DNA from: a bacterium | GTDB lineage: Bacteria > UBA10199 > 2-02-FULL-44-16 > JAAZCA01 | Assembly (NCBI GenBank): GCA_963674695.2 | Contig: CAXXGI010000003.1 | Span: 448,001 to 512,000, forward strand | Direction of reading: 5' to 3' | DNA length: 64,000 bases | Shown here: one piece after another, positions 38,652 through 56,471 of the stretch | Numbering within the stretch: the first letter of the stretch is position 1 | Layout: every line of letters starts with the position of its first letter | Notes under the pieces: model-generated | The model's input: only the letters and a program-made list of their open reading frames with translations | Databases searched by the model: none | Told to the model about the DNA's origin: nothing | Position numbers and translations under genes: made by a program

Positions 38652-38761
38652 TTCGTGCCTCCTTTACTTCGCCGCTAGTTATCTAATTGATATTATTACC
38701 CTATTAAATCCTTGAATGTAGGCCCCGTCTAGGGGTAGTGTCCTCGACAGGAGGCCTTCCA

Positions 38762-39319
38762 ATGAAAAAGCTTATCTGCATTGCCCTTGTATCCATATTC
38801 GTTTCAGCGTGTGGCTCCGGTGGTTCAACGGCGCCGTCTTCATCGCCGTCAGGTGATGTGTCCGCATCCTTGCCCGATATTATCGATCAAATATCGGATG
38901 GTATTTTCAAGTATGCCGATCCATCACTCTACAGAGGCACATACTACAAGGCCAGCAACCCGACCGATACGTGCAGCAGCGACGGTGGAGTTATGCCAGC
39001 CACCATTGAAATCGCTGCCATGACAAACGGCTCAATGGTAATGATCTATGACGAATTTCAAGAAACGCTTGGTTCAATTCCTCAAACCGAATTTGATTTC
39101 TATGTCTTTGAAGGCCTTTACTCCGGGTATTCTTGCCTGTACGCCATGAGCAGCATGAACAGGTCGGGCACCATCGATAAGGCGGTTGCCTATTGCGAAG
39201 ACGCTGATTCGACCTTGTCGTGCGCCGTTGGATACGAGCGCGCTTCCGCTTACGACTTTACAACCACGACAATTAAAGGCGATCCAACAAATGCCTTTAA
39301 GAGCCTTGAGGACTTTTGA
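38762..39319 (+). CDS. Lipoprotein moron, opposite strand to the phage late operon
   Basis: MKKLICIALVSIFVSAC lipobox, Ser/Gly linker, RBS AGGAGG. Confidence 0.75.
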   Translation: MKKLICIALVSIFVSACGSGGSTAPSSSPSGDVSASLPDIIDQISDGIFKYADPSLYRGTYYKASNPTDTCSSDGGVMPATIEIAAMTNGSMVMIYDEFQETLGSIPQTEFDFYVFEGLYSGYSCLYAMSSMNRSGTIDKAVAYCEDADSTLSCAVGYERASAYDFTTTTIKGDPTNAFKSLEDF

Positions 39320-39391: not shown

Positions 39392-40813
39392 CTAGTATTG
39401 CCTCGACGCGCCATATTGCTTTACAAGCCCCATCTTCATTGAGCGCCCCAGAACATTGAACAACATCTTCCTGAATGTTGGGTGTGCCATCAAATCAGCG
39501 TAAATAGTTTCTCCGCCCTTCTTTGAAACTATCTTGTCTAGCTGTGTAGCAAGGTATGACTTCACGGGGAACGAACGCCCTGCCTTCTGCGCCATCGCTG
39601 CAGTTACTGCGCCGCCCATGTCACCCGTTGCGGCATAGCCCAACGCCCCAGCGCCACCAGTTGACATTGGGTGTGCAACCATCACGGCTCCGTTTTTCAA
39701 ATCCTTTGCCATGGAGTTGGAAACGACATCCACAAGTTCATTGTAAATATGATATTCCTTGTTTAGAAACGATGCTTCAGGGACGATCTTGTTGATTTCC
39801 GCCCTAAGTCCATCCGCAACCCCTTTAGACCATTCACGCTCAACCGCGGCCACTGCGTCAACATTGCCCAACTGCTGCGCGTTATATATAGATTTCGCAC
39901 GGTCTGCATGAAGTCGCTTAATGATGTTGGCCTCCATTGGATTCAATATCTTGCTATTTGGTTTTATCAGCTCCCGCGTTGGAACATATGAGAACTCATG
40001 GCGCGCGTGCTTACCAAGAAACTCCGCTTCTTTTCGTTCCAGTAGCTTCAACCCCTTCAAATCGTTGAGCCTCGTTAGCTTTTGGCGGACTGGCTGCAAT
40101 GATTGCATGATTTTGTGTGGATCAATTGAAGCCTGCGACGCCTCATTCAGCACTGTGTCTAGCTGCTGGCCAACGAGCTTTTTGTCGCGAACAACCCTGT
40201 TTAAAACATTGCGTTTCATACCGTAAACGCCCCGCTTTGCGGCCTCCTGTCCCAATGTCAGCTCACCCTTCACGATGTTTCCAGCGATTTCCTTTGTGGG
40301 AGTAGGGAACGCAGACGTTGCCAATCTTTGCTGCAATGGCTTGACGTAGTTCTTCGCACCGAATCGGCCAGCAATTTTCATTGCTTGACCAACGGGGAGT
40401 GCTTCTGCTGCCATGCTTGCTGATCCTGTTTGGGCCGCCCTTCCGATCGTTTCGCGCATTCCTTTCGGCTTATGCCACCCAAGAGCTTGACGAATCGCAT
40501 CTTCTGCGACTTGCCCCCCTGCACCACCAAGGCCAGCACCGGCGACACCAAAAAGTGGTGCGGTTACGGGCGACCCAAGACCTCCACCCGCAGGGAGCCC
40601 AGCCATTCCACCCAGAACAGCACCCCCAACATACCCCGCCATCGGCAGTTGCCCGCTCAAGAGATTTCTATCGGCCCAACCGCCTTTGTCGAAAGCGCCA
40701 GCGTCCTTATCGACCAATCCTCGACGCCGGGCCTCGGCAAGAAGTTGCTTTTTGCCTTCTGGCAATTTCCCACGCTTTTCAAGCTCGACCATTATTTGAA
40801 TTTTATTGGCCAT
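39392..40813 (-). CDS. Putative ejection / internal virion protein
   Basis: Gly/Ala-rich hydrophobic stretches, helical; last of four such genes. Confidence 0.6.
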   Translation of the reverse strand: MANKIQIMVELEKRGKLPEGKKQLLAEARRRGLVDKDAGAFDKGGWADRNLLSGQLPMAGYVGGAVLGGMAGLPAGGGLGSPVTAPLFGVAGAGLGGAGGQVAEDAIRQALGWHKPKGMRETIGRAAQTGSASMAAEALPVGQAMKIAGRFGAKNYVKPLQQRLATSAFPTPTKEIAGNIVKGELTLGQEAAKRGVYGMKRNVLNRVVRDKKLVGQQLDTVLNEASQASIDPHKIMQSLQPVRQKLTRLNDLKGLKLLERKEAEFLGKHARHEFSYVPTRELIKPNSKILNPMEANIIKRLHADRAKSIYNAQQLGNVDAVAAVEREWSKGVADGLRAEINKIVPEASFLNKEYHIYNELVDVVSNSMAKDLKNGAVMVAHPMSTGGAGALGYAATGDMGGAVTAAMAQKAGRSFPVKSYLATQLDKIVSKKGGETIYADLMAHPTFRKMLFNVLGRSMKMGLVKQYGASRQY

Positions 40814-41628
40814 TATTCACCCAATTGTTTCATGAGTTCTTCATCTGACATAGCAGAAATGCCGTTGTCTTGAGAGCCAGACCCGCCAAGTTCAACGCGC
40901 TTTCCAATCAAGTCTGTAAAAAGACTGTTCAAAAGCGAAACGCTTTCTTGCCTAACTTCTGACTGTGGGTGCACTAACCCCTTCAACGCATCGAGCGCCA
41001 TTTTCGTTTCCTTCTCTCCCGCGTTTCCAACGTCGCCCATTGCCCGCCTCAATAGTGGGCCGCTTATATTCAGCACGTTGTTATATGCTTCCCTCTGAGG
41101 CAACTGGCCAAATCCTTCCATCGCTGAATTCATCGGACCTTGTAACCGTTTGCCAACAAAACCGGACGAAGATGGGATTCTTTTGGCTGCCTTTACAAAC
41201 GTATTCAACATGCCGACGACTGCCTTTTGCGTATTCTGCAAATCAGACTTCGTGCCCATGAAAGCGTTTCTTGTTTTAATGAACTGGTTCGCCATGTCCA
41301 AGTTGCCATTGACGGCTTTAAGCAATTCGCCATATTTTATGTCAGCAACTGGTTTACCGAGCATCGTGACTTCATTATAAAAATCGTTGTACGCTTTTTC
41401 CTTAAATTTCTTGCCCACCTCTGCCTTTGCAGATGCAGCAGCGGTTGCTTTTGCCGCAGCGACATCCGCTTCTGCTGAAGGGCTGACGAATGTCGGACCT
41501 GTCTTTGAAAAGCGTGTCATCACGGGGGCGGCGCCACGCTCACTGGGCATCTGAAAAGTAGACTTCGGCGCGGTTTGAGTAACGGTCCGCACACGTTTTT
41601 TTTCACTCGGCATCATAAAATCAGCCAT
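40813..41628 (-). CDS. Putative ejection / internal virion protein
   Basis: Helical Ala/Lys-rich; C-terminal ISAMSDEEL; translationally coupled. Confidence 0.55.
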   Translation of the reverse strand: MADFMMPSEKKRVRTVTQTAPKSTFQMPSERGAAPVMTRFSKTGPTFVSPSAEADVAAAKATAAASAKAEVGKKFKEKAYNDFYNEVTMLGKPVADIKYGELLKAVNGNLDMANQFIKTRNAFMGTKSDLQNTQKAVVGMLNTFVKAAKRIPSSSGFVGKRLQGPMNSAMEGFGQLPQREAYNNVLNISGPLLRRAMGDVGNAGEKETKMALDALKGLVHPQSEVRQESVSLLNSLFTDLIGKRVELGGSGSQDNGISAMSDEELMKQLGE

Positions 41629-41631
41629 AAT

Positions 41632-42078
41632 TTACCCCCCTTGACGGGTGAACCCCTTTTCTTTCAGCCAATCGACATCCTCTTGAGTGCCCGGAACCTT
41701 TTTCATTCCATTTGAATGCACCCACACACCGAATGGCGCTTCTCTCCCGACTCCTTCATTCGCGATAATCGTTCCGACTCCTCTGTCAACTGGTGGAGCA
41801 TCATTCGGACCTGCGAGTCCCGGCATTCGTGGAAAAGTTCCACCGCCTGACCCCATCGGGGAGCCACCCACCATGCCCATCATTTGAGACATAAATGGAT
41901 TTTTCATTTCTTGATAAATTGCCCTGTCCTCTGGCGACAGATTCTTGAACATCTCAAGTTCACTCTTGAGCTTTGCAAGTGCGTTCTCGCGTTGCATTTT
42001 ATTCCCCATTGCCTGGGAAACACCCTGCCCAAATCCGCCGCCGATCTGTGCGCCCATTTGGGCCCATCTGCTAGGCAT
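41632..42078 (-). CDS. Putative ejection / internal virion protein
   Basis: N-terminal MGAQIGGGFGQG typical of pilot-type proteins. Confidence 0.55.
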   Translation of the reverse strand: MPSRWAQMGAQIGGGFGQGVSQAMGNKMQRENALAKLKSELEMFKNLSPEDRAIYQEMKNPFMSQMMGMVGGSPMGSGGGTFPRMPGLAGPNDAPPVDRGVGTIIANEGVGREAPFGVWVHSNGMKKVPGTQEDVDWLKEKGFTRQGG

Positions 42079-43585
42079 GATAACCCTCCATTATTGACGG
42101 GATCGTTGAACCCAATTTCACCCCGTTGACGTAGTAAAAACCGCAGTCCGTCAGTATGTCGTGCGTGCAGGTTGAATCGCTGCTCACAACATCCGTTCCA
42201 ACGAGATTGTCAAAGTACGGGTGGCCGTCACTCATCACAACATCGCCCGTGTCAAACTTATGGAGGTAGAACTTGTGATTTTCAGGCCGCAAGCAACAGC
42301 TTGTTGCGAGAACCTTCCCACCCTTCACGGAGTCGCCGGGCCTGACGTCCTCTACGTTTTTAGATCCGTCGTCCGTTTCAATCTTCGTTCCCTTTGGCAG
42401 GCAGAACATGCCCATACCTAGACCTGCTCCGATTCCACCCGCGATCCCACCCGCGGCGCTCCCAATGAGCCCTGGGCTTCCCTGACTTCCAGGTTGTCCG
42501 CCAGTGGAAAGTTGGTACAGCCGGAAGAGGTCGTTCATTGGCTGACGCTGCATTTCGTTTTGCAATCCATACTCCCCGAGGGCCAACTGACGGGCACCCG
42601 TCTGCTGATTAAACGCCTGATTCTGCTGCTGTAGTTGCTGCTGGCGCTTCTGTAAGGCCGTCTGCGCCAAGAACTGAGCTTGCTGATCCGATGCGCCCTG
42701 CTGACGGAAAAGTTCCTCCGCCTGGGCTTGCTGACGGGCGAAATCGGACTGCTGCTGCATCCCCTGCTGTTGCGTGTTTAGGTTTGCGCCGAACTGAAAT
42801 GCCCCAAGCTGCTGCTGCCCCTGCTGCGCTGCCAACTGTGATGCGATGTCCGCAAGTCGGTTGCTCTGCCGATCACGTTGAGTCATTATCGCCTTGGTGG
42901 TTCCGCCAGTCGTCAACATCCCCCTTGCGTTCATGTCCTCAAGAATTCCAGCTCGCTCATCGGTGCCTTCGCGCTGAGTGAGACGCTTTGCAATATCGTA
43001 TTGTGGCGTGAACGAATCGCCGACCGCTTTCATCGGGTCGAACCCCTGAAAGTCCCAGTTGTAGCCCTGGAATTGGAACGGGTTGCGAGATTGAAAGTTG
43101 ACGTCGAAATCTGGGAGCTGCGACGCTTCCGCTATTGCATTCGCGTTCTGCTGATTTGCAATATCTTCGTTGAGTCCCTTTTCCCTTGCCGATTGAAACA
43201 TCCGACCAAGGCCACTAAATGGCCCCTTGTATTTCGTGCTCGGGTCATTTGCCGTATTGATATTCGATAGCTGCGATTGAAGATCACCAAGACGCTGCTG
43301 GCCTTCTAGCAAGTGGCTTCCCGAAAAGGTGGTCGGTGTCAGTTGACCTGAAATGGCCTGTCCGGGTGTGAATCGATTTGCAGATGCAGGGGAAATAGTC
43401 CCGAGCTGTCCCGCATAGCTATTCATCTGCGGGTACAGATCGGGATACATCCCCATGAACTGCGAAAGCATGTAATCGTTCAGCATGCCGCCCTGGGTAT
43501 CCCACCCTGGGCCTCTGAACGCTTGCGGATCACTTCCACCACTACCAAACAGCATGTCGGTTATGAAGCCTGCGCCTCCGAACAT
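42071..43585 (-). CDS. Putative ejection protein with C-terminal Hint (Hedgehog/intein) domain
   Basis: Gln-rich helical body, Gly-zipper GLIGSAAGGIAGGIGAGLGMGMF, then CLPKGTKI...VEDVRPGDSV...SDGHPY...THDIL...YYVNGV. Confidence 0.75.
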   Translation of the reverse strand: MFGGAGFITDMLFGSGGSDPQAFRGPGWDTQGGMLNDYMLSQFMGMYPDLYPQMNSYAGQLGTISPASANRFTPGQAISGQLTPTTFSGSHLLEGQQRLGDLQSQLSNINTANDPSTKYKGPFSGLGRMFQSAREKGLNEDIANQQNANAIAEASQLPDFDVNFQSRNPFQFQGYNWDFQGFDPMKAVGDSFTPQYDIAKRLTQREGTDERAGILEDMNARGMLTTGGTTKAIMTQRDRQSNRLADIASQLAAQQGQQQLGAFQFGANLNTQQQGMQQQSDFARQQAQAEELFRQQGASDQQAQFLAQTALQKRQQQLQQQNQAFNQQTGARQLALGEYGLQNEMQRQPMNDLFRLYQLSTGGQPGSQGSPGLIGSAAGGIAGGIGAGLGMGMFCLPKGTKIETDDGSKNVEDVRPGDSVKGGKVLATSCCLRPENHKFYLHKFDTGDVVMSDGHPYFDNLVGTDVVSSDSTCTHDILTDCGFYYVNGVKLGSTIPSIMEGYHA

Positions 43586-44136
43586 TTCGGCCCGTCTTCC
43601 TCCGACACAGGAGCCGACACTCCCCTTTTGTGCAATTTATTGAAAGCGCCCTTCGTGACAGAGTATCTTTTCACGTCGTGAAACTCGCCATCCGCATAAA
43701 CCTCGTTTTCGAACGTCCCATCTTGCTTGAACCCCACCTTTTCAAGCAGTCCGATCGACGCTTCGTTGTCTGCGCGCGGCGTGCCGATGATCTTGTAGAA
43801 GTTCATCGAGTTCATGACATAATTGCACATGAGTACGAACGCGCCATAGAACAGCCCGTTACGCTGATGTGCCTTGTCGATCATTCCATGAATGTGCAAA
43901 TTCCTGTGCCTCTCCTTGATCTCCGATAGCACAATGATTCCGTAAACCTCATCAGGAACCTCTGTATTTACGATCACGAAAGCATTTCTGACGTCCCTCG
44001 ACATCGAAAGCGTGAACGGCTCGGAATTGCCGAAGAACATTTCGTAATCACCTGAATGATTCCACCGATACACGTGCCCCGCATGAAACTGCGGCTCATA
44101 TGGAATCAGCATCACTTTGTTATTTGAAAGTCGCAT
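43561..44136 (-). CDS. GNAT acetyltransferase (RimJ/RimL-like)
   Basis: HQRNGL, DNEASIGLLEKVGFKQDGT, GEFHDV. Confidence 0.82.
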   Translation of the reverse strand: MRLSNNKVMLIPYEPQFHAGHVYRWNHSGDYEMFFGNSEPFTLSMSRDVRNAFVIVNTEVPDEVYGIIVLSEIKERHRNLHIHGMIDKAHQRNGLFYGAFVLMCNYVMNSMNFYKIIGTPRADNEASIGLLEKVGFKQDGTFENEVYADGEFHDVKRYSVTKGAFNKLHKRGVSAPVSEEDGPKCSEAQAS

Positions 44137-45838: not shown

Positions 45839-46300
45839 TTACTGATATTTTATGCGAACACCGTGCATATCAGAATTCATGTCAGTTGATGTCATGCTCA
45901 AATAATAACCGTAATTCATGTAATCCAATTCAACGTTAAGAGACATTGTTTTCACAACGTCTGCATTGGCAGCGGAATGCGTATAGTTAATATGATCTAT
46001 CTCTGTTTGCGTTCCGTCGATGTAAGCCAGTTTATAAAAATACACATTGTACGTTTCGAGATTCAGAGCCTGAAACGACCAGTCGATTGATAGTATCGAC
46101 GCGCCGTCACTCAACACAACCTCCTGGTCCGTGTCGCCAGATATAAACCTAAATGTCCCACCTCCCGGATATGTTGCATATTTTCCCTTAATCATCTGTG
46201 CATATAAAACGACGTACCACTTGCGCATCCTAACAAAGAAATCTGGATATTCTCCTGCGTCACGAGGTTCATTCGGTGGCGTTCCTATCTCGAATATCAT
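45839..46300 (-). CDS. Phage tail-region hypothetical protein
   Basis: ATGA overlap with the upstream gene; start MIFEIG at 46300. Confidence 0.5.
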   Translation of the reverse strand: MIFEIGTPPNEPRDAGEYPDFFVRMRKWYVVLYAQMIKGKYATYPGGGTFRFISGDTDQEVVLSDGASILSIDWSFQALNLETYNVYFYKLAYIDGTQTEIDHINYTHSAANADVVKTMSLNVELDYMNYGYYLSMTSTDMNSDMHGVRIKYQ

Positions 46301-47886
46301 TCCACATACTCCGGCTGTGACCCAAGATCGGTGACTCCGATTATCATTTCGTCCACCTTCATAGCTTCGCTTGCCGACGAATGACTCATCTGCGTCAGCA
46401 CCCAACGCCCAGAGATGGCCCTTTCTCCATCTGAAGGAGTCAATCTGCATCTGGTGTACTTCGTCGCGGGTGATGACCAATTATCAGTACCCCAAACAAG
46501 CGTGCCCCACATTCCGCCGGATGCTGCAATTGAGATTGCCGCCGCGCCGGACATTCGTTGTGTCGCAGCCGTAACCGTCATGTTCGTTGCGGATGACTGC
46601 GTGGTCTGCACGTTCAGGTCGGTCAATAACTTGACGTGGCTCGGGGAACCGAAATCAATCTTGCCTGTCTGCCATTTGCTGACGATCGTTTTTGAGTCTT
46701 CATCAAGTAATCCATAATCCTGCCGAAGCGCAAAACCGTTATAGTCACCAGTGACTGGCATCTTCAAACCAGAGGCGCTTTCAAATATCGCCATAGCGTT
46801 TGCATTTATGCCGACATGATAAAGGTTAGAACTCAATGTGCGGCCAGTCTTCTCGTCCGAGAAGTTATCGTTGAAATAATCGTAAACCATGATCTGGCTG
46901 TGCGTGGAATCAGACCCAAGTGACATCGAAAGCCAATACTGATTCAACCCTGTGTAATTCATACTTGAACACACGTTGTGTCGCGATCGGCTCATCGTGT
47001 CATAGAGCGGCTTTGCCGGGTCGCCCAACTGAATCAGGTTCTTTGTCCCGTTGAATCCCTTGATCGTCCCTTCGGTGGAGAGAAAGACAAGAATGTTCCC
47101 GTACCGTCTGGACTCAACCTCACGAATCGAGTATCCGGATGCGCAGCCCTCACCCGAAACGATTGTCTCGGTGTACATGTCGCGCGCAGGACTCGACCCG
47201 GAAATGGCATATATTCCGCTTGGCTTGAATACGATTACACGGTCGGCATAAATCGCATGCCCCGTTATGTTCTCACCACCGCCGGAAAACCTCACCACGT
47301 CATTGAGAAGATCCCAACTTTCACCATCTCGAAGACCGGACAGGTAAACAAAGTCATCCACCACGACCCACAGCTTATTCTTGTGAACAAGTGGCCACTT
47401 GAAATATTCTGGAGGAGAGCCACCAAGGTCTGCGGCATCTCCCGTGCCTGTCCATTTGATCGCCGCTGCATCGCCTTCCTTGCATCCGATGATAATTTCA
47501 TTCGCCGCCCCAGAATCGTAGAACGTGGCGAATGAGGCCAGCTTGTCTGCGTCGTCCGTGAGCGTAACCGACCCCGTCTTGTCCACCCAAGCCCCAGCGG
47601 TCAAATGCTTGAAAGCGTCGCCGCCCATGCCGACCTGATACAGCGTCCCGCCCAGCTTCGTGCTGTACAGCCCGACAAGAGGCTTTGCAGTCGTGTCCGT
47701 CTTCTCCTTGAACGCAACAGCGTTGAGCTTTGTGGAGCCTTTGCGCTGCGAGACAGCTTCCTCGCCGATATTCACATTCTGAAGGCCGGAAGACTCCCAA
47801 AGATGAATTGCCGTGTCTGAAATCTTGGTATTCAGCCCAAGAAATCGTTCAATCCGAACCGGAGTTGTGGTTTTCTCCTGGCCCAT
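46297..47886 (-). CDS. Tail nozzle / DNA stabilization protein (P22 gp10- or T7 gp12-like)
   Basis: FLGLNT start, RKGS, beta-propeller-like repeats, position after the adaptor. Confidence 0.65.
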   Translation of the reverse strand: MGQEKTTTPVRIERFLGLNTKISDTAIHLWESSGLQNVNIGEEAVSQRKGSTKLNAVAFKEKTDTTAKPLVGLYSTKLGGTLYQVGMGGDAFKHLTAGAWVDKTGSVTLTDDADKLASFATFYDSGAANEIIIGCKEGDAAAIKWTGTGDAADLGGSPPEYFKWPLVHKNKLWVVVDDFVYLSGLRDGESWDLLNDVVRFSGGGENITGHAIYADRVIVFKPSGIYAISGSSPARDMYTETIVSGEGCASGYSIREVESRRYGNILVFLSTEGTIKGFNGTKNLIQLGDPAKPLYDTMSRSRHNVCSSMNYTGLNQYWLSMSLGSDSTHSQIMVYDYFNDNFSDEKTGRTLSSNLYHVGINANAMAIFESASGLKMPVTGDYNGFALRQDYGLLDEDSKTIVSKWQTGKIDFGSPSHVKLLTDLNVQTTQSSATNMTVTAATQRMSGAAAISIAASGGMWGTLVWGTDNWSSPATKYTRCRLTPSDGERAISGRWVLTQMSHSSASEAMKVDEMIIGVTDLGSQPEYVE

Positions 47887-48851
47887 TACGTCCTCGGAAA
47901 GTTTGACGGAAACTGCGCAACCGGCAAGGAACTGCTGAGGCTGAACGAGTTCAACGACCAGACACCGGAAGGCTGTTTGTCGTCTGCAATCATGTCCTTT
48001 ATTCGCAGCTTAAACTCCTCATACGTCGTCCGAAACATTGAATCGTTGTTCAAATGCTTGAAGCAGCGCGCAATCGCATAAAGCTCCGGCACGTCATGAT
48101 ACTTTTCGGGGATTAGCGAGATGTCATCGTTCGCCGACAACGTTTGCAACGCCATCGTGAAGTCATAGTAAATCGTGTCCACGGAGTCGGGAACGCTGTA
48201 GAGCGACACCATCGGGTGCGAAACCGACCTATCCTTCGGGGCAATGGCAACATTCGTCACCGCAGCCGCGTTCGATGTGACCGTCACCGTTCCCACTGAC
48301 CCGGCGCTCTTGGATAGGCTCATCACCTTTGTGTAGGAATGCGTTGAGCTGACAGGCGTTGTGCCGTTCAGCGTAACCGTCTCTGGCACGAACACCCCGG
48401 ACCCGTTTAGCCCCTGGATGTTCACAACGACAGCGGTATCAGAATCGCTCGTGGACACGAACGACAACACAGAAGCCGCAGACGGCTGATTCTGCACCGG
48501 TGAGTACCCAACCAGGCGGTACAGATACGCATCCCCTGTGGACTCTGCACCTGGATCAAACCGCCTGAATTCTGCTTCGGTCTGATTGTCGAGGTGTCGC
48601 GGGGTGTCCGTACTGTACATCGTGATAATCTTTGACGTGTCCACAAGCGGGCTCAAGGCATACGTCTGAGTATCTGCCGCCGTGGTGAGCGTATAGCCGT
48701 ATTGGCGAAGCCACGACCACCCCTGCCGCTTCCCAGACGAAGACCCAACGATCTTCTGTCCACGGTCAAGCCAACGGATAATGATCGAGTCAATATCCGT
48801 GATCGGATGACACTCGGCGTTCACGTTTTTGACCTGCTCCGCTACGTTCAT
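47886..48851 (-). CDS. Head-tail adaptor protein
   Basis: IIRWLDRGQ...WSWL...YAL; LIPEKYHD; position after capsid genes. Confidence 0.65.
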   Translation of the reverse strand: MNVAEQVKNVNAECHPITDIDSIIIRWLDRGQKIVGSSSGKRQGWSWLRQYGYTLTTAADTQTYALSPLVDTSKIITMYSTDTPRHLDNQTEAEFRRFDPGAESTGDAYLYRLVGYSPVQNQPSAASVLSFVSTSDSDTAVVVNIQGLNGSGVFVPETVTLNGTTPVSSTHSYTKVMSLSKSAGSVGTVTVTSNAAAVTNVAIAPKDRSVSHPMVSLYSVPDSVDTIYYDFTMALQTLSANDDISLIPEKYHDVPELYAIARCFKHLNNDSMFRTTYEEFKLRIKDMIADDKQPSGVWSLNSFSLSSSLPVAQFPSNFPRT

Positions 48852-49144
48852 TTTCCATGTTCCTTCGTGATGTGCATCTTCATGCCTTTTTCAGTTGCGC
48901 AGACATATCCGCACAGCTTGCACTTGAATTTTTCGACACCAGAGCCAGCAACAGGCGATTCCGGCATCTTCTCCGGCTCCTTGACCTCCGGAGTCTTCTC
49001 CGGATCGAGCGGCTCTCCTGGGGCTGCCTGTGCAGTCACCGGTGCCCCGTCCTCAGCGGGCGGACGCCAGAAATCATATCCATGGGGCGGCATGGCTTTC
49101 TCAACCTTCGGGTCTCTGAAAAAATCCGGTGTATCGTATCCCAT
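48848..49144 (-). CDS. Small protein with C-terminal C2H2 zinc finger
   Basis: FKCKLCGYVCATEKGMKMHITKEH; RBS AAGGAGG. Confidence 0.7.
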   Translation of the reverse strand: MGYDTPDFFRDPKVEKAMPPHGYDFWRPPAEDGAPVTAQAAPGEPLDPEKTPEVKEPEKMPESPVAGSGVEKFKCKLCGYVCATEKGMKMHITKEHGK

Positions 49145-49172
49145 TGTTCCTCCTTTAATCGGTTTGCGAGAC

Positions 49173-49200
49173 GGAGCCCCGGGGGAGGGCTGGGGGCTCC
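49173..49200 (-). terminator. GC-rich hairpin after the capsid genes (possible terminator or processing site)
   Basis: GGAGCCCC...GGGGCTCC; no clear U-tract. Confidence 0.4.
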
Positions 49201-49217
49201 GCCCTAAAACCGCTCGA

Positions 49218-49997
49218 CTATGCAGCCGAGGTGCCCAGCTTGAAAGCCTGGCCACAGAACAGATCAACAACGGCTTTGCGAGCCACAGTATCCGAAGTCA
49301 GCGCGCATTTTAGCGCACCGATTCTCAGCTCCGCAGCGTCCGCAGCGCCATCATTCACGACAGCCGCATCAGCAACCACGGATTCGTTGATAACGAGAGC
49401 CGTGCCGGCAGCAACAGCATCAACGCCGGGGTGAACACCGAAGAACTGCACCCAACCGTAGTCATACTGATCGGGAGCACCCATCACGACACCAGCGACC
49501 ATATGGGCCGCATCACCGTCGGCTGAATCGTCCACTGCCCACGGCAGATAAATGACGAAATCGTCATTCACCGCAGGAGCGACCGAAAAAGCATCTGCCG
49601 TGGCAATCGTCACCAGGGTTGCTGTGTTGGCAACAACGATGCCTGACTCCCCTTCAGGAGCCGCACCGGCACCGCCGGCGTCATCAAGACAAACGAGCAG
49701 ACCATCAACGTAAATGTCAGCGGTAAGCCCGGACGTGGTGATTGACGTTGTGGTGCCAGCGGTGATGTTGTTAATCGCCTTCACGGCAATGTATGACTGC
49801 AACTGCCCTGCCGTTGCACCGCCGCTCTGGTCGAAACGCACATACTGGAACCCGCGCAATCCAAACTGCGGGTGCTGATCCCATCTGACACAGCCCTTGA
49901 CCTCCTTGGGCGTAGAACCAACCTCATCCAACAATGTTGCCCAGCCCATACGCTTGTTCGCGTACTGCTGTGAAATTGTACTCGCTGCGATGGTCAT
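49218..49997 (-). CDS. Putative capsid decoration/cement protein
   Basis: FQYVRF, YGWVQFFG, Ala-rich; follows major capsid gene. Confidence 0.6.
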   Translation of the reverse strand: MTIAASTISQQYANKRMGWATLLDEVGSTPKEVKGCVRWDQHPQFGLRGFQYVRFDQSGGATAGQLQSYIAVKAINNITAGTTTSITTSGLTADIYVDGLLVCLDDAGGAGAAPEGESGIVVANTATLVTIATADAFSVAPAVNDDFVIYLPWAVDDSADGDAAHMVAGVVMGAPDQYDYGWVQFFGVHPGVDAVAAGTALVINESVVADAAVVNDGAADAAELRIGALKCALTSDTVARKAVVDLFCGQAFKLGTSAA

Positions 49998-50023
49998 TTC
50001 TGACCTCCTTTCATGGTTTCAGG

Positions 50024-50971
50024 TTATGCCGTCACTCCGCACATCACGCCGCACGCCGCAGCCCGGTCAGTCGTAAACTGGGCGTATAGAAGATACTTCG
50101 CGGCGCTGTAATCACCGTCTGCGGGCTCGATGAATTTCCCGATCGTGAAATTGTAATCTTCGTGGATGTACAGTTTCAGGTGGCGGGTGTTGAGGAGGTA
50201 AATCTTTCCGGACGGGCAGTTGTCGTCAAAAATGACGTCAATCCCCTGGAACTTCAGCGCCTGAAAACCAAGATCGGCAAGCTTCGGGTTCTGGTACTGA
50301 GCCTTGCCCTGGGCAATGTTCTCAAGATACCCAAAGTTCGTGTCGTCCATGACGATGATGTCCGGCTTGTTCGTGCCTCGCGTGAGGCTGCGAATCATCG
50401 TGGACATCTTCGGAACGAGATAAGTTCCGTATGAACCGACCGAGTCATCAACCTTGTTGCGCCAGAAAGCGTTTGTAGCGCGGTTGATTCCACCGAGTGT
50501 TCCGGTGGTCGGGTCGACGTCAACGAGAGCCTGCAAACCGAGAATGTCCTTGCCACCGTTCCCGGTTCCATCACCGAACATCATGACAGACACCTTATCT
50601 GCCATAGAAAGCTCGGCTTGCTCCTTCAACGTCTCAAGGATGCTGATCTGCTTTTCACGACCGGCGTTTCTCGCCCGGGTAATTCCGTCGATTGAAATCG
50701 GGCAGACGGTCTGCTTCCAGTTGAACTCCGCCGCCGTGATTCCACCGGGATCGGAGATGTCAATCGTGTCGCGACCGGCATAGCTCTGTGCGTTGGCCTT
50801 CTTGTAGAGTAGATCGCGCTGGATCTTGTCACCGCCATCGAGCTTGATCGCCTTCTTTAAAACCAAATACTTATACAGAGGAATATTGTTGCTGATATTA
50901 TCAGCCATAGTCTTCTGCAAATTGTTGAATGTCGTCGATGCAACCGCATCAAAATTTGGGTTTCCTGGCAT
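50024..50971 (-). CDS. Major capsid protein (HK97 fold)
   Basis: MADNISNNIPL, GDGTGNGGKDILGL, GGINRATNAFWRN, ALKFQGIDVIFD, IYLLNT. Confidence 0.88.
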   Translation of the reverse strand: MPGNPNFDAVASTTFNNLQKTMADNISNNIPLYKYLVLKKAIKLDGGDKIQRDLLYKKANAQSYAGRDTIDISDPGGITAAEFNWKQTVCPISIDGITRARNAGREKQISILETLKEQAELSMADKVSVMMFGDGTGNGGKDILGLQALVDVDPTTGTLGGINRATNAFWRNKVDDSVGSYGTYLVPKMSTMIRSLTRGTNKPDIIVMDDTNFGYLENIAQGKAQYQNPKLADLGFQALKFQGIDVIFDDNCPSGKIYLLNTRHLKLYIHEDYNFTIGKFIEPADGDYSAAKYLLYAQFTTDRAAACGVMCGVTA

Positions 50972-51019
50972 TGCTTCCTGCCGTGTCCCGATACACTTTC
51001 TTTCCCCCGACAGTTAGGG

Positions 51020-51739
51020 TTATCCGCCGGCAAGTTCTGCTTCAGCTTGCGCGAATGCCTCAGCTACGCTCATCGCATGACCGTTTCCAGAAGTTGAAGG
51101 GGCAGAATTCGGAGCCGAAGCCGGGGTATTCTTGTCCTTGTTCCCGATCTCCGCGTAAATCTTGTCCTTCATCTCCTGTTCGATCTTCGCACGATCTACA
51201 GGGTTCGTCGCATTCCACGCGCTCTCTAAATCGAGAGCCGGAGACTGCGCCATCAGGTCAAGAACCTTGTTGCCCTGCACCTGACCCGTAATCGGGTCCT
51301 TGTAATCGTACTTGCTCCAATCATCGCCGAACTTCGCCTTGCCAACCTCGTATTGCTGCTTGTAGGCTGCCGCAAACTGCTGCTGTACCAGCGGTTGAAG
51401 AACCTTCTTTTCAATGTCCGAACGAATTGCTTGCGCGCCCTCGTAACCGAACTGCTCAACCATCGCATCGTGCTCCTGCTGCGTCATCGGCTGCGGTGCG
51501 TGCGAGGTTTGAGGAATCGATTGTACGCGCTGCAAAAGCCCTTCGTTTCGTGTGCGGAGTTCTTCGGCCTCAGACTCTAACGAGTTCTTTTGATCGTTGA
51601 TCTCCTTGAACCGTTCGTATGGAACCGGACCAGGCGTTTCAGTGTTTTGCGTCCCTGCGGACGGCGCTGGATCGGTCACTGGTTCGACTACTACTGGTTC
51701 GGGCGCTGACGGGGCTCCCTCTGTGTTTACGTCTGTCAT
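51020..51739 (-). CDS. Capsid scaffolding protein
   Basis: VPYERFKEIN coiled coil, acidic; between portal and capsid. Confidence 0.75.
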   Translation of the reverse strand: MTDVNTEGAPSAPEPVVVEPVTDPAPSAGTQNTETPGPVPYERFKEINDQKNSLESEAEELRTRNEGLLQRVQSIPQTSHAPQPMTQQEHDAMVEQFGYEGAQAIRSDIEKKVLQPLVQQQFAAAYKQQYEVGKAKFGDDWSKYDYKDPITGQVQGNKVLDLMAQSPALDLESAWNATNPVDRAKIEQEMKDKIYAEIGNKDKNTPASAPNSAPSTSGNGHAMSVAEAFAQAEAELAGG

Positions 51740-53646
51740 ACTGCACCTCCTGGACCCATCGGTCCCTGAACTGGTGATGGAGCCACAGGACTACCCTGCG
51801 GCCCCGCCCCTGGCGCTGGTAATGGCGCAGGGGTAGGCTGTTCAGCCCCTTTAAAAGACTGACCAGTCATGGGCATCGGCGGCGCACTCGCTGCCTCTGC
51901 CATTTGGTTTGCTTGCATCTGGGCCTCGAACATCTTGTGACCCAAAATGTGGATGATGTTCTCGTTGTTCCCGTTCGATTCCTGCTCGTGAATCATCCGG
52001 TGCTTCTTGTGATTCTCGTTGATCTTCGGCGCAATGTACGAGCCCGCGTTCAATAGCCGCGATTCTTCCATCGGATTATCTTTCTTCATCGTGAGGTTGT
52101 CGTTTCGCACGTCAAACACCTCGACCGCTTCGTTAAGGACTTCTTCAATATCCAGTCCAGGCATGAGGTTCCCGGTAGCCACAAACTTCATGAACCCCTG
52201 GAATTTCGCCATGCGGGTCTGGTCATTGTCCGGCATGGTTGACCCGGCCTTGATCCTGACCTTGAGCTTCTTTGAAATATCCTTCTTGGTAATCTTGAGG
52301 AATGGATGCTTCGCGGTCCCCTCGATCGTTTCGCCGAGACGGTCCTGATAATCCATGAACTTGTTGTCGGTCATGCCTGTCAGGGCGACAGTCTTCGTTG
52401 CGCTGTAGTTTTTCTGCATCAACTGAATCCACTTTCCGGCAATGGATGCAATCACCTCTTCAAGCCGCTCAAGGTTCTCGCTCGAAATCTCCTGCGCGGC
52501 CATCTCGACGGCCTTAACTTCCGTTGCTGTTTTTTCACCGGAGGTCTGACGCGGTGCTTGCTTGCTTATTGTCTGGATGTCCTGACGAACTGCTTGCTCT
52601 GCGGCAAAAAGCTGCGGGTCAAGGGCTGCGTGCGTGAGTGGTTCTACATCCTGACTCGCACCAAGTTCAACAACGACCGAATCATCACTCGACTTCAACT
52701 GCGCCTTCTGCGTCTCGTCCAGATCGCCACGGGCCTTATATTTCGAATTCCCCTTCTTCGCATGGTTCAAAAGCATCGTCCGGAACGTCGCGAGCTCAAT
52801 TAGTTGGTCACGCCAGAAGAAATAATCTGATTTTGTATCAGGGCGGTCCGGGATGTCGTTGTATTCGAGGAAATCATACATCGTATCGAACGGATAAGTC
52901 TTGCTCTCCGGTTTCTTCACGAACTTATCGATCCCCTCGACGATTACGCAAACCTTTCCATTCTTCCGGTCTTCAATCTCGTAATAGGTACCATACTGAA
53001 AATCGCTTTTAACTTCGTTCCCGTAGTCATCCAGGTCCTTTGATCCCTTGTCCGACTTCGTAACCGTGATGTCGCTCCGCTTCTTAATCCAGAACTTCTC
53101 GGCGATGTCGGATACCTTCGACTCGATCTCATGTGCAATCCACGGGGACGTTTTCCAGCTCGTGGCACTCGGGTCTTTGAGCAATTGCTTCAACGGCACC
53201 CGATCGGTTCGCACGTCGTCATTCTTGACGCGATCGTCCCACTCGTCCTTTACGAAGTTCTTCTTGAAGTTGAAGTACGTCTTGAACCCGCAAACACCGT
53301 AGAACTTCGTGCTCTTGATCCCATCCCGCATCAGCGATTTCATCTTCAACTCGGGCCATTTGATATTGACCGCAAGCTCGGCGCGCTCCGCGTCCTGCTC
53401 GGCGCCGGGCTCGTCGGGATCGATAAATATCTTGGGATTTCGGGAATAGTATTCAGGGACGGACTGCTTCATGTCGACGTAGACGAGATTTACCGCCACG
53501 CCGTCAACAAAGCCCGCTTTTGATGGAATCTTGCCTTCGTAGTGCTCGACGGACTTATCACCGTCTTTGAGCACTGGCTTTCGCGCTTCCTTCGCAAGCG
53601 AAATGCGGGCCTTCCAAACGTCGTATTGTTCTTTTAGCGTTGCTAT
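51736..53646 (-). CDS. Portal protein (open frame extends to an ATA codon at 53646; first standard start is GTG 53574)
   Basis: About 630 aa after terminase; KTATEV motif; Pro/Gln-rich tail; position before scaffold. Confidence 0.8.
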   Translation of the reverse strand: MATLKEQYDVWKARISLAKEARKPVLKDGDKSVEHYEGKIPSKAGFVDGVAVNLVYVDMKQSVPEYYSRNPKIFIDPDEPGAEQDAERAELAVNIKWPELKMKSLMRDGIKSTKFYGVCGFKTYFNFKKNFVKDEWDDRVKNDDVRTDRVPLKQLLKDPSATSWKTSPWIAHEIESKVSDIAEKFWIKKRSDITVTKSDKGSKDLDDYGNEVKSDFQYGTYYEIEDRKNGKVCVIVEGIDKFVKKPESKTYPFDTMYDFLEYNDIPDRPDTKSDYFFWRDQLIELATFRTMLLNHAKKGNSKYKARGDLDETQKAQLKSSDDSVVVELGASQDVEPLTHAALDPQLFAAEQAVRQDIQTISKQAPRQTSGEKTATEVKAVEMAAQEISSENLERLEEVIASIAGKWIQLMQKNYSATKTVALTGMTDNKFMDYQDRLGETIEGTAKHPFLKITKKDISKKLKVRIKAGSTMPDNDQTRMAKFQGFMKFVATGNLMPGLDIEEVLNEAVEVFDVRNDNLTMKKDNPMEESRLLNAGSYIAPKINENHKKHRMIHEQESNGNNENIIHILGHKMFEAQMQANQMAEAASAPPMPMTGQSFKGAEQPTPAPLPAPGAGPQGSPVAPSPVQGPMGPGGAV

Positions 53647-53687
53647 GACTCAACTGCTGCCACCCGACCGACTTGCTTTCCCCCGAC

Positions 53688-54011
53688 CTACGGTTTCTGC
53701 GCACCAATAAACACCAGAGCCTTGATCCCCTCGACAAGTGGCAGGCGCCGCGTGTACTCTTCCGGACTCTTCACGCGCGCTTTCAAGCACTCCAACTCCG
53801 AAGCGTAGAGGTTCGCCTTGATCTTATCAAGATCGTAACTATCGCAGTTCATTGCGAAGCAATCCTTGCACATTCCGACGATCGTTCTTTGCCCGCCGTC
53901 ACGGATGATGTGCACGTTTCTCCCGGCGAGGTCGATTCCCTGTGAAAGTTCCTCAACCGTCCACCGTGGTTCGCCGCAATTTACGCATCCGCCTTGCCAT
54001 TGTTTCGGCAT
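53688..54011 (-). CDS. Hypothetical Zn-ribbon protein
   Basis: CVNC...CKDC pairs. Confidence 0.5.
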   Translation of the reverse strand: MPKQWQGGCVNCGEPRWTVEELSQGIDLAGRNVHIIRDGGQRTIVGMCKDCFAMNCDSYDLDKIKANLYASELECLKARVKSPEEYTRRLPLVEGIKALVFIGAQKP

Positions 54012-54235
54012 GTGACACCGTCTTTCAAGTAGAACAAAACATGCTGACAAACCGGACACACCACCTTTGAACCAAGTTCCGGCAATAAATATCCGCTCAA
54101 TGAGACAAGACTCCTCTCGTCCAATATAGATTCACGTCCGATTTCACGCCACCCTCTGACATAAAATAGGTCGAGTTCGCAATTCGGGCAGTCAATGACT
54201 CCATGTGTGGAATGGATATAAACATCAGCTCTCAT
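53981..54235 (-). CDS. Hypothetical Zn-ribbon protein
   Basis: CPNC...CPVC pairs; RBS GAGG. Confidence 0.5.
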   Translation of the reverse strand: MRADVYIHSTHGVIDCPNCELDLFYVRGWREIGRESILDERSLVSLSGYLLPELGSKVVCPVCQHVLFYLKDGVTCRNNGKADA

Positions 54236-54302
54236 GTATTGCCTCGCTCTGATCGGGGGGGCTGGGGTGTCGGGTTCCCCTGCCCGCCTAGGATGTCCCC
54301 GA

Positions 54303-55694
54303 TCACAACGCCCCAATTCTCCGGGGTTTCAATTTCTCCTCACGTTCCGCCTGTCGTTCCGCCGCTTCCATCATCGTCATTTTCTTGTCCTGGTTCTTCC
54401 ACAACGGCGGCCGACTCATCAGTCCAAGCCTACAGCTTTCAAGCGCGTGATCGACACAGTCATCAGCAATATCCTCGACGTTTCTTTTGCTGTGATATGC
54501 TGACGTTAATTCCTCAATCAAATTCACGCATTGATTCGATATGTGCCACCACGAAGACTTCCCCCCCTGATAGTCTCGAAGTCTCAAGTAATCCCTCATC
54601 CGCGACCAGCCATCAATGCGCGACGAATCGCCCATCACCATCGGCACGCCGTTTTCGGCCCAAATGTCAGACCGTTTGACACTGGCCAACTTTCCATGTT
54701 TCCAATGCTCCACCTTGACCGGAAAGCTCTGTGGATCGCCGACAGTGTATTTGACGTCTTCGCTTTCCGCTGTGTAGCTGGCGACCTCTTGAGCGGCGAC
54801 GATGTCGTGCTTTTCGGTTTCATAATATTCCCGATACGTGTAAATGTGCTGATCCGGTCCTATCGCGTGCCAATAAACAGCCATCGGACTCGTGTATCCC
54901 CAATCTACTGTCCTGAACCGTGGCCAACTTTCAAGGATGCGAATATCAGCAGGGCTGTAAACGTGATGAACCCGATCAAACTCTGTGAAGTACGCCCCTT
55001 CGAATACATCCCAATTTCCATCTCTCCACGCTGATCGAAGAGGCTCCGGCAGACCGTTTAAAAAGTTCAGGTAATCCGGATCCTTTTTCATCAGCGTGGG
55101 GTTGTCTGTCACCTTCCCCGGAATGAATATTCTCGTCCTGCCAGTCACGGGATCAACGTATTTCGTCCCAGGTGGCGCGATCGATACGAACCGACCCTTG
55201 ACCCATCCGTGCCCAGGACCGCCAGGGTTCGACGTGTTGAACACCCTTGCGTCAATGCCATCAACCGTGGAGCGACAGGAGCTTATCAGCTTCAGGTAGC
55301 GTTTCTCGCTCGGTATCTGCGTCAACTCCTCGATCAACATCCGCTGATATTCATGCCCCTGGTACTTCTCGTAGGCGTTCTCGTCCTTGAGGTGGCCCGT
55401 CCTGATCTTCGCTCCGGAAGGAAACCTGATTTCCGCCGGTTGACCGATCACTTCGCCACCGCTTGACGCGTACATGAACCGTGCGCGGTCCAGCCAATCC
55501 CTCAAATCGTCCGCGTTCTTGCGGATCACCAACCCCCTGTATCGAGGGAACCGAATCGGCTTGGTCATCCACACGATTCCCCCATCCGTCTTCCCTGGCC
55601 CCCTTGCCCCCCCATAGAGGAGTTCAAACGCCACGGTCCGTAACGCCATCTCTTGCGGTCCGGGGTGAGGCTTCCATGTCAAAGAGCTACTCAT
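54303..55694 (-). CDS. terL: Terminase large subunit
   Basis: Walker A YGGARGPGKT, Walker B MLIEE, TSNPGGPGHGWVK, nuclease VDWG and DHALESCR. Confidence 0.95.
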   Translation of the reverse strand: MSSSLTWKPHPGPQEMALRTVAFELLYGGARGPGKTDGGIVWMTKPIRFPRYRGLVIRKNADDLRDWLDRARFMYASSGGEVIGQPAEIRFPSGAKIRTGHLKDENAYEKYQGHEYQRMLIEELTQIPSEKRYLKLISSCRSTVDGIDARVFNTSNPGGPGHGWVKGRFVSIAPPGTKYVDPVTGRTRIFIPGKVTDNPTLMKKDPDYLNFLNGLPEPLRSAWRDGNWDVFEGAYFTEFDRVHHVYSPADIRILESWPRFRTVDWGYTSPMAVYWHAIGPDQHIYTYREYYETEKHDIVAAQEVASYTAESEDVKYTVGDPQSFPVKVEHWKHGKLASVKRSDIWAENGVPMVMGDSSRIDGWSRMRDYLRLRDYQGGKSSWWHISNQCVNLIEELTSAYHSKRNVEDIADDCVDHALESCRLGLMSRPPLWKNQDKKMTMMEAAERQAEREEKLKPRRIGAL

Positions 55695-56130
55695 CTTCCT
55701 TCGGCACGTAGAGTACTATCCCAACAGGTCTATCGGGATCGCCGGACAATTCGCTTTTGTCCGTCCACTTGTGCATATTCTTCAATGCAAAAATCGTTGC
55801 GGAAGGAACGAGCGAACCGGACATCATCCCACAGACCATCTTGTTCAATTGAATATCCTTGGCCATTTTATATGCCATGGAAAATTCGTCATGTTTTCCG
55901 CACCATTCAATCAACGTCCCGGTGTGAACGCCTATTTTGTCAGCGAAACCCTCGAAGAAGTTTGGAAGCTCACCGAGCTTGTGTTCGGTGACGTTGCCCT
56001 CATACGAAAACAGCTTGTAGACATCTTCCCCACCATCGCGCATGTGGTCGATAAGCTGCTGGCAATACTCTGGCTTGTATTTAGTGGGGCGACCAACCGG
56101 ACGTTTGCTCTTTTTCGGTTTATTGCTCAA
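55687..56130 (-). CDS. terS: Terminase small subunit
   Basis: GRPTKYKPEYC, HTH GFADKIGVHTGTLIEW...EFSMA, IFALKN; TTG start after GAGAGG; overlaps terL. Confidence 0.82.
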   Translation of the reverse strand: MSNKPKKSKRPVGRPTKYKPEYCQQLIDHMRDGGEDVYKLFSYEGNVTEHKLGELPNFFEGFADKIGVHTGTLIEWCGKHDEFSMAYKMAKDIQLNKMVCGMMSGSLVPSATIFALKNMHKWTDKSELSGDPDRPVGIVLYVPKEDE

Positions 56131-56255
56131 AGTACCTCTCCCGCGTTTCGCAGGAAAGGGCGGGCATCTCACCGTGGGGGTAAATTGAAATGCTGACGAG
56201 CGTGCCCGGTTCCCTTCCCACACATCAGAGATTAGCACGCCGTCAAGAATAACGC

Positions 56256-56471
56256 CTATGGGATTGAATGGTAGAGTGTGGTTTTGTTCGGTAGGTTTTT
56301 TGATTTCACGATGTTTTTGTCCATCCACTTCACAAGATCGCATTCCTCAACGACGATCCTTCCGTTGATTCGCTTGATTGGGAGCGGGCTGCTTTCATGC
56401 CACCGCCTCACGGTTTCCCAGCTTCGCCCGACTCTCTTTCCTATACCCTTCCATCCCCACAGTAAGCTCAT
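56256..56471 (-). CDS. Small HTH (Xis/MerR-like) DNA-binding protein
   Basis: GWKGIGKRVGRSWETVRRW...LPIKRING...LVKW. Confidence 0.7.
   Translation of the reverse strand: MSLLWGWKGIGKRVGRSWETVRRWHESSPLPIKRINGRIVVEECDLVKWMDKNIVKSKNLPNKTTLYHSIP

Follow-up and report, generated by a model that had tools for sequence, protein, structure and literature searches.

A very small, conserved Hint domain at the C-terminus of a probable podovirus DNA-ejection protein

The 504-aa open reading frame described here belongs to a prophage in a 64,000-nucleotide stretch of bacterial DNA (the window, numbered from its first letter) and carries at its C-terminus a real, conserved and very small variant of the Hint domain, a variant that occurs on phage virion proteins. 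The ORF is probably that of a podovirus DNA-ejection protein, on the basis of synteny and without a direct family match, and its Hint has the look of a cap that is optional and can be removed, not of a lipid-attaching enzyme in the Hedgehog style. On balance we favour the reading that it is a catalytically intact minimal Hint which serves the ejection protein as a self-removing pro-domain, the cap being released by hydrolysis. This would add a predicted self-processing step to the podovirus DNA-ejection machinery, one undescribed in the open-licence literature that was searched. That literature, judged mostly from listings and the opening lines of abstracts and set apart from subscription papers such as the original BIL studies, yielded no description of Hint domains in ejection proteins, nor do the available portions of PMC5259590 and PMC7824862 describe one. 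The features concerned are collected in Table 1.

Table 1. Features of the window that concern the 504-aa ORF, its C-terminal domain and its neighbours
Feature	Position	Strand	Basis
Podovirus-type head-tail module, terminase small/large to nozzle-slot ORF	46297..56343	-	Genomic context of the 504-aa ORF
GNAT-fold gene, usual podovirus slot before the ejection genes	43561..44136	-	Pfam Acetyltransf_3, E 3.2e-9; phrog_651 (head morphogenesis), E 3e-4
504-aa ORF, putative first DNA-ejection protein (T7 gp14 / P22 gp7 slot), with C-terminal mini-Hint	42071..43585	-	Synteny
N-terminal body, residues 1-371, Gln/Gly-rich, mostly long-helical	42473..43585	-	Low-confidence model, pLDDT 62.5
Gly/Ala-rich uncharged hydrophobic segment, Gly372-Phe394; predicted new C-terminus, candidate membrane-inserting tail	42404..42472	-	Hydropathy
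Mini-Hint domain, 99 aa, Cys395-Ser493	42107..42403	-	AlphaFold model, VIA-align, Foldseek, family alignment
Cys395, Hint Cys1, predicted nucleophile; predicted scissile bond Phe394-Cys395	42401..42403	-	Cys in 58/58
Block B, Ser452-x-x-His455 (B7, B10)	42221..42232	-	Ser/Thr 58/58, His 58/58
Asp476, block F4	42158..42160	-	58/58; Ala in this column in Drosophila Hedgehog, aligned by eye
Ser493-Thr494; Ser aligned with the intein terminal Asn and with Hedgehog Cys143, then Thr at +1	42104..42109	-	Counts over 58 domains
Next three ORFs downstream (148, 271, 473 aa), probably encoding the rest of the ejection proteins	39392..42078	-	Position only

Prophage setting and identity of the 504-aa protein

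The prophage lies downstream of host housekeeping genes, on the minus strand, and extends from about 34.9 kb to where the window ends. Its head genes run in the order small terminase, large terminase, a 612-aa ORF of portal size, a scaffold-like ORF, the major capsid protein, an SU10-type adaptor and a 529-aa ORF in the nozzle slot; three ORFs, the GNAT gene, the 504-aa ORF and the ORFs of 148, 271 and 473 aa come next, and tail-fibre-like and lysis genes after them. The same gene order is found on two GTDB contigs from Bdellovibrionota bins (L001 and L002), where the orthologue of the 504-aa protein is Hint-less and is followed by a 160-aa ORF and then by a protein of 1,260-1,362 aa with an N-terminal lytic transglycosylase, a likeness to T7 gp16. 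In the window and at both related loci the gene is placed between the nozzle and GNAT genes and the larger ejection proteins, and the order seen in L001 and L002 supports the identification of its product as an ejection protein.

That identification, made already in the preliminary description, is upheld by synteny and not by family membership. The N-terminal part gave no significant match to gp14, gp7 or other families, and a fold search with its helical, low-confidence model (pLDDT 62.5) gave nothing at E ≤ 0.001, so that the identity rests on gene position; the one Atlas lead, sub-threshold at 0.86, is to a cluster in which 18% of the members carry P22_gp7, and the whole protein was unmatched among 50,697 cultured-phage records. 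The conserved core, at about residues 190-362, is common to the Hint-less orthologues. Hydropathy averaged over 19 residues is highest in the protein at residue 378 (KD 1.47), and the natural C-terminus of the Hint-less orthologues is as hydrophobic as the Gly372-Phe394 segment. Proteins of the T7 gp14 slot are described as inserting into the outer membrane and as the first to exit (PMC8954989, excerpt).

The GNAT gene overlaps the start of the 504-aa ORF by 25 bp, as had been noted, and the two had been suggested to form a two-enzyme maturation system. This partnership is unsupported, since a GNAT orthologue (31% and 27% identical to that of the window) also precedes the Hint-less orthologue in L001 and L002, the two loci found. 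A GNAT beside internal virion genes has already been noted in cobaviruses and likened to T7 gp13 (PMC6775973, in the part available), and the neighbour in the window matches the gp13 slot and is not specific to the Hint.

The single lytic-transglycosylase protein of L001 (11216-14998) and L002 (11493-15581) corresponds in position to a pair of ORFs in the window, 271 and 473 aa long (39392-41628, minus strand). A family search with the ORF cluster downstream of the 504-aa ORF found no transglycosylase match, a PHROG search with its three ORFs found no match, and the 148-aa ORF is not alignable with its positional counterpart in L001. A 193-aa lipoprotein-like ORF (38738-39319, plus strand) lies on the opposite strand, with the ejection genes on one side of it and the tail-fibre genes on the other; family searches gave no match to it, and it is possibly a lysogen-expressed accessory gene. 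An RtcB-family RNA ligase gene stands among small early-type prophage genes (61167-62441, minus strand); a 6-bp unit is repeated about 30 times inside the prophage (58991-59171), and a 27-bp unit recurs in 23.9 copies at 63167-63810, where the minus strand encodes a protein of 9-residue repeats.

Fold and conservation of the mini-Hint domain

The last 110 residues of the ORF (42074-42403) begin with Cys395, immediately after the Gly-rich hydrophobic segment, and contain all five of the Hint blocks previously quoted for them (A, N2, B, F and G); the His-Asn end of inteins is missing, as had also been claimed, and just 10 residues remain after Thr494. The sole Hint family matched is Pfam Hint_2 (PF13403), over residues 1-26 only (26 of 147 model positions), with E 1.4e-4 and 22.7 bits, below the cut-off of 28.4. 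NCBIfam, PHROG and PDB sequences gave no match; a PDB sequence search with the domain alone returned nothing at E ≤ 1, and one with the domain profile just weak block-A matches to the VMA1 intein.

The AlphaFold model, built from 24 sequences, is nearly all beta strand and has a mean pLDDT of 92.2. Compared by VIA-align with 48,161 chains, it aligned at Z ≥ 8 with 26, every one of them of Hint fold, the best at Z 12.6 (rmsd 1.9 Å, 96 residues aligned) against Z 3.0 for the best unrelated chain. Foldseek, run on the PDB and on viral models, agrees, the top viral row being a phage protein of 360 aa whose sole annotation is Hint. The comparison of a predicted structure with known Hint folds, which the preliminary description had proposed, was thus run with a confident outcome, and on the model the C-terminal 99 residues of the ORF are a Hint domain. 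The fold does not single out Hedgehog, as the scores of the MchDnaB1 intein (Z 12.6), gp41-1 (11.8), Hedgehog-C (11.8), the Clostridium BIL (11.2) and Tetrahymena BIL2 (11.2) are nearly tied.

A word-seeded search found 23 homologues among 553 candidates, and an exhaustive domain search of 1.84 billion representatives gave 63 matches, 44 of them at E ≤ 1e-10 (all counted as 50%-identity representatives). Altogether 85 proteins were compared; 59 match the domain from end to end, and residue counts use 58, as one is without its first residue. Cys1, Ser/Thr58 (B7), His61 (B10) and Asp82 (F4) are invariant in all 58, so that the Cys, His and Asp on which the original assignment leaned are conserved throughout. 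At position 99, 57 domains have Ser and one has Thr, and at position 100 (+1) 55 have Thr, two Ser and one Ala; the register of position 99 against the intein terminal Asn and Hedgehog Cys143 is taken from the range ends of the VIA-align matches and a by-eye comparison. Residues particular to this family are Arg39 (Arg433 of the window protein; 48/58), His43 (His437; 52/58) and His48 (His442; 47/58). The core, thought from the start to be unusually short at about 99 residues, is so across the family, with 99-102 residues to position 99 in 54 of the 59 homologues, those with the end located, and 1-19 residues after it in 53 of these 54. The mini-Hint is often better conserved than the N-part of the same protein; it is 55-67% identical to that of the window in proteins, P0011 and P0012 among them, whose N-parts barely align. 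The 50,697 cultured-phage records gave only partial N-terminal matches to the domain, none covering 80%, and of 10 stretches picked out in GTDB by Hint-derived patterns none was confirmed.

The same mini-Hint is met in other surroundings. P0058 and P0063, of about 250 aa, have it at the C-terminal end behind an unrelated N-terminal domain, and in P0067 (1,726 aa; residues 1134-1234) and P0069 (1,384 aa; from residue 775) it is internal, in a Ser/Gly-rich linker and with a Cys-rich stretch after it; here, without a terminal Asn, it would split rather than splice its host protein. P0067 also has a YQBQ-like C-terminus and an additional, endonuclease-bearing intein. Longer Hint variants with ends similar to the mini-Hint are found in P0080, P0081 and P0083; two of these proteins are membrane-anchored, lie at or near the Hint_2 cut-off and end in Gly-Ser-Thr, and one is Gln-rich and resembles ejection proteins. 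Databases already label some phage proteins 'Hint', and an Atlas cluster of viral proteins 396 aa long, with a Hint family among its annotations, resembles the N-part at 0.85, no more than a lead; on these two grounds the arrangement may extend beyond the present family.

Optional occurrence and possible function

A search with residues 150-394 found 13 relatives, nine of them Hint-less, and a profile of nine Hint-less proteins gave 39 matches. Among 111 proteins surveyed, 62 have the N-terminal core, 27 with the Hint and 35 without it, a ratio that reflects the queries and not nature. The mini-Hint is an optional module of the ejection protein. P0005, which has it, and P0026, which does not, are 97% identical over 337 aa, near-identical alleles that put a natural control at hand, and the Hint-less genes of L001 and L002 have real stops at the DNA level, no frame there giving a Hint. 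A quickly built tree of 54 N-parts, from which six weak matches and two probable fragments were omitted, requires at least four changes of Hint state, forced by well-supported branches; being midpoint-rooted, it cannot tell gain from loss.

The 35 Hint-less N-core proteins end in the same hydrophobic segment, most of them at the equivalent position. Mean hydropathy of the last 20 residues is 1.01 before the predicted cut (21 proteins) and 1.02 at the natural end (34 proteins), for strong core matches and with P0109 left out, this protein and P0110 looking like fragments. Counted from the last conserved Pro-x-x-Asp-Leu motif, the predicted cut lies at 40-48 residues in 18 of the 19 Hint-bearing proteins with the motif found; the natural end of the Hint-less proteins lies at 40-49 in 23 of 34 and at 56-68 in 10, the one remaining being a mis-hit.

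The favoured reading, a self-removing pro-domain, builds on the fold, the conservation, the optional occurrence and the gene context, which were established directly, and on a predicted cut position that matches the natural end of most orthologues. From Hint chemistry, Cys395, aided by Ser452/His455 and Asp476, would turn the Phe394-Cys395 bond into a thioester. The acyl-shift residues are all intact, and the self-cleavage proposed earlier for this bond is counted as likely. The acyl group may then move to Ser493 or Thr494 as a branched ester, like that of Hedgehog with Cys143. As there is neither an Asn to cyclise nor a sterol-binding region, splicing and cholesterol transfer would not be available, and water or a small thiol would most likely free the 394-residue protein with its free hydrophobic C-terminus, the same predicted product that Hint-less orthologues yield by stopping there. 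Hydrolysis is preferred because a simple stop codon at this point has repeatedly proved acceptable in evolution instead of the Hint. More speculatively, the soluble domain might keep the uncharged, membrane-inserting tail covered while the protein is still in the cell that produces it, and might be shed before the ejection protein threads through the tail channel.

Against this reading, the Hint-less orthologues make the cap dispensable and leave its benefit unexplained, and the ten Hint-less proteins with the longer distance from the motif end beyond the predicted cut. Cys1 is preceded by a bulky residue where Hedgehog has Gly, and the acyl shift could be slower for it. Ser493/Thr494, Arg433, His437 and His442 are conserved beyond what simple hydrolysis might require, a pattern in the alignment that suits a ligation reaction.

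Such a reaction is the basis of a second reading, which we regard as unlikely though worth keeping: the thioester, or a Ser/Thr branched ester, would be resolved by a specific nucleophile (an amine, a polyamine, a phospholipid head group, a lysine of a partner ejection protein or a component of the host envelope), the membrane-inserting tail being capped or cross-linked by it and the Hint-less lineages managing uncapped. Ser493 occupies the place of Cys143 of Hedgehog, a residue that enters a branched intermediate ahead of ligation (PMC12054796, excerpt), and an uncharged hydrophobic segment nearly always precedes the domain, in differing N-parts. The question is kept open by the conservation of the near-invariant Ser-Thr and of the Arg/His/His set and by retention of the domain over deep divergence, though one stop codon would delete it. 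However, no adduct-recognition region follows the domain, just the short tails of 1-19 residues in 53 of 54; Asp or His is found in one of 58 domains at each of the three candidate columns for Asp46; and near-identical orthologues occur without the Hint. The chemical capping first suggested for the C-terminus survives here as a covalent rival; as an obligatory step it is weakened because 35 of the 62 N-core relatives, without a Hint, end in the same hydrophobic segment. A doubtful version makes the mini-Hint a phage-encoded ligase, whose spring-loaded thioester or Ser/Thr ester, at the C-terminus of an ejection protein that forms the outer-membrane pore, would be discharged onto lipid, amine or host envelope and would covalently anchor the DNA conduit; if true, a 99-residue Hint on a virion protein would carry out a modification of the Hedgehog kind with no sterol-recognition region.

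It is improbable that the domain is mostly a passenger, selfish or neutral, that derives from an intein, sits where virion genes vary at their 3' end and is conserved only for efficient self-removal. Its patchy presence, with the changes of state on the N-part tree, and its occurrence on unrelated proteins, C-terminal in P0058 and P0063 and internal in P0067 and P0069, would fit this, but it has no endonuclease to drive its spread, and though a single stop codon suffices for loss, it is kept in 44 proteins at E ≤ 1e-10 among the 50%-identity representatives. Least probable of the four is a domain that stays on in the virion as a packaging or binding handle, to be cut, if at all, only on ejection: the bulky residue before Cys1, and the extra conserved His that could bind a metal keeping the domain inactive (Zn binding is mentioned for the Hedgehog Hint in the part of PMC9163320 available), speak for it, but all the acyl-shift residues are invariant, and a channel of about 30 Å (PMC8954989, excerpt) would hardly suit a folded beta disc.

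Comparison with Hedgehog, inteins, BILs and other self-cleaving domains

The description of the domain as Hedgehog-type stands in part. The mini-Hint resembles the Hog domain in fold (1at0: Z 11.8, rmsd 2.5, 98 aligned), in Cys1, in T/S-x-x-H and in its predicted removal from the C-terminus of a functional protein; at the Cys143 position none of the 58 domains has Cys, but the Ser (or Thr) there may act as a hydroxyl nucleophile. Protist, moss and algal Hog domains also have Ser, Thr or Asp at that position (PMC2362128, in part), and it is possible that the Ser keeps a Hedgehog-like relay. It differs in having no sterol-recognition region, no conserved Asp46/His and no Gly before Cys1, in its intein-like F4 Asp and in being about 45 residues shorter. 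Drosophila Hedgehog (supplement S17 of PMC2362128, seen in excerpt) aligns with the family by eye without a gap over the last 17 residues and has Ala opposite Asp82. No adduct- or sterol-recognition region was found, the window protein ending 10 residues after Thr494, and the rare Asp or His noted above for Asp46 refers to Hint positions 36, 37 and 38, in a register set by eye against a published alignment; a substitute role of His437 or His442 is possible. Cholesterol transfer by Hedgehog requires both Asp46 and the sterol-recognition region (excerpts of PMC9163320 and PMC12054796), and since both are missing, Hog membership fails on two features, with fold scores that do not favour Hedgehog either. 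Sterol transfer is rejected for the mini-Hint, which is without the recognition region.

With the mini-inteins (gp41-1, MchDnaB1, Mtu RecA) the domain shares the fold (Z 11-12.6), Cys1, B7, B10, the F4 Asp and the +1 Thr; unlike them it has no terminal Asn/Gln, hence no splicing, and no C-extein. A class 1 intein or A-type BIL is rejected, since Ser/Thr stands in all 58 domains where the C-terminal (His)-Asn/Gln would be. The smallest intein, according to the available part of PMC12245125, is gp41-1 with 125 aa; with the mini-Hint, whose activity is predicted, the apparent lower size limit for a functional Hint would drop to about 99 residues. The mixture of intein-like features (F4 Asp, +1 Thr) with a Hedgehog-like one (a possible nucleophile at the Cys143 position) makes the family a test case for the branched intermediate recently proposed in non-splicing Hints. 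If active, the domain could serve as a small self-cleaving tag or as a thioester generator, one that accepts bulky residues ahead of the cut.

B-type BILs are without intein block G, cleave without splicing and lie in variable parts of non-conserved proteins, a location that the mini-Hint shares (excerpts of PMC4031507 and PMC7765530). The family likewise combines intein N-terminal motifs with a non-intein block G, and has the Hint fold, Cys1 and the B-block His without a His-Asn end. Hint_2, which we take to correspond to BIL-B, is a model of 147 positions against the 99 aa of the mini-Hint, whose match is confined to 26 residues and scores below the cut-off; the mini-Hint also differs in sitting on phage virion proteins and in its own conserved Arg/His/His strand. 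Going by the motifs, an N-cleaving Hint like the B-type BILs fits better than Hedgehog and best among the classes described, but as the Hint_2 profile match is too weak the domain is not filed as a B-type BIL. Vint was rejected as well: there is no VWA match upstream, and the Atlas look-alikes have Vint on only 11% and 62% of their members.

The peptidase S74 chaperone of phage tail fibres offers a functional analogy, being likewise small, C-terminal and able to detach itself from virion proteins of low complexity (PMC7824862, excerpt). Its fold is unrelated and its chemistry is of the Ser-Lys type; none of the 62 N-core proteins showed an S74 domain in place of the Hint (searches of 156-882 aa, word-sharing candidates). 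Among ejection proteins the nearest counterparts are T7 gp14 and P22 gp7, which share with the 504-aa protein the slot after the nozzle and GNAT genes and, in L001 and L002, before the large lytic-transglycosylase protein, as well as a helical make-up with a hydrophobic segment. The window protein is larger, and it has no detectable match to either in sequence or fold. P22 gp7 is trimmed by proteolysis as well (PMC8402733, in part), with the difference that the cut there is N-terminal and made by a host protease, not by the protein's own C-terminal domain.
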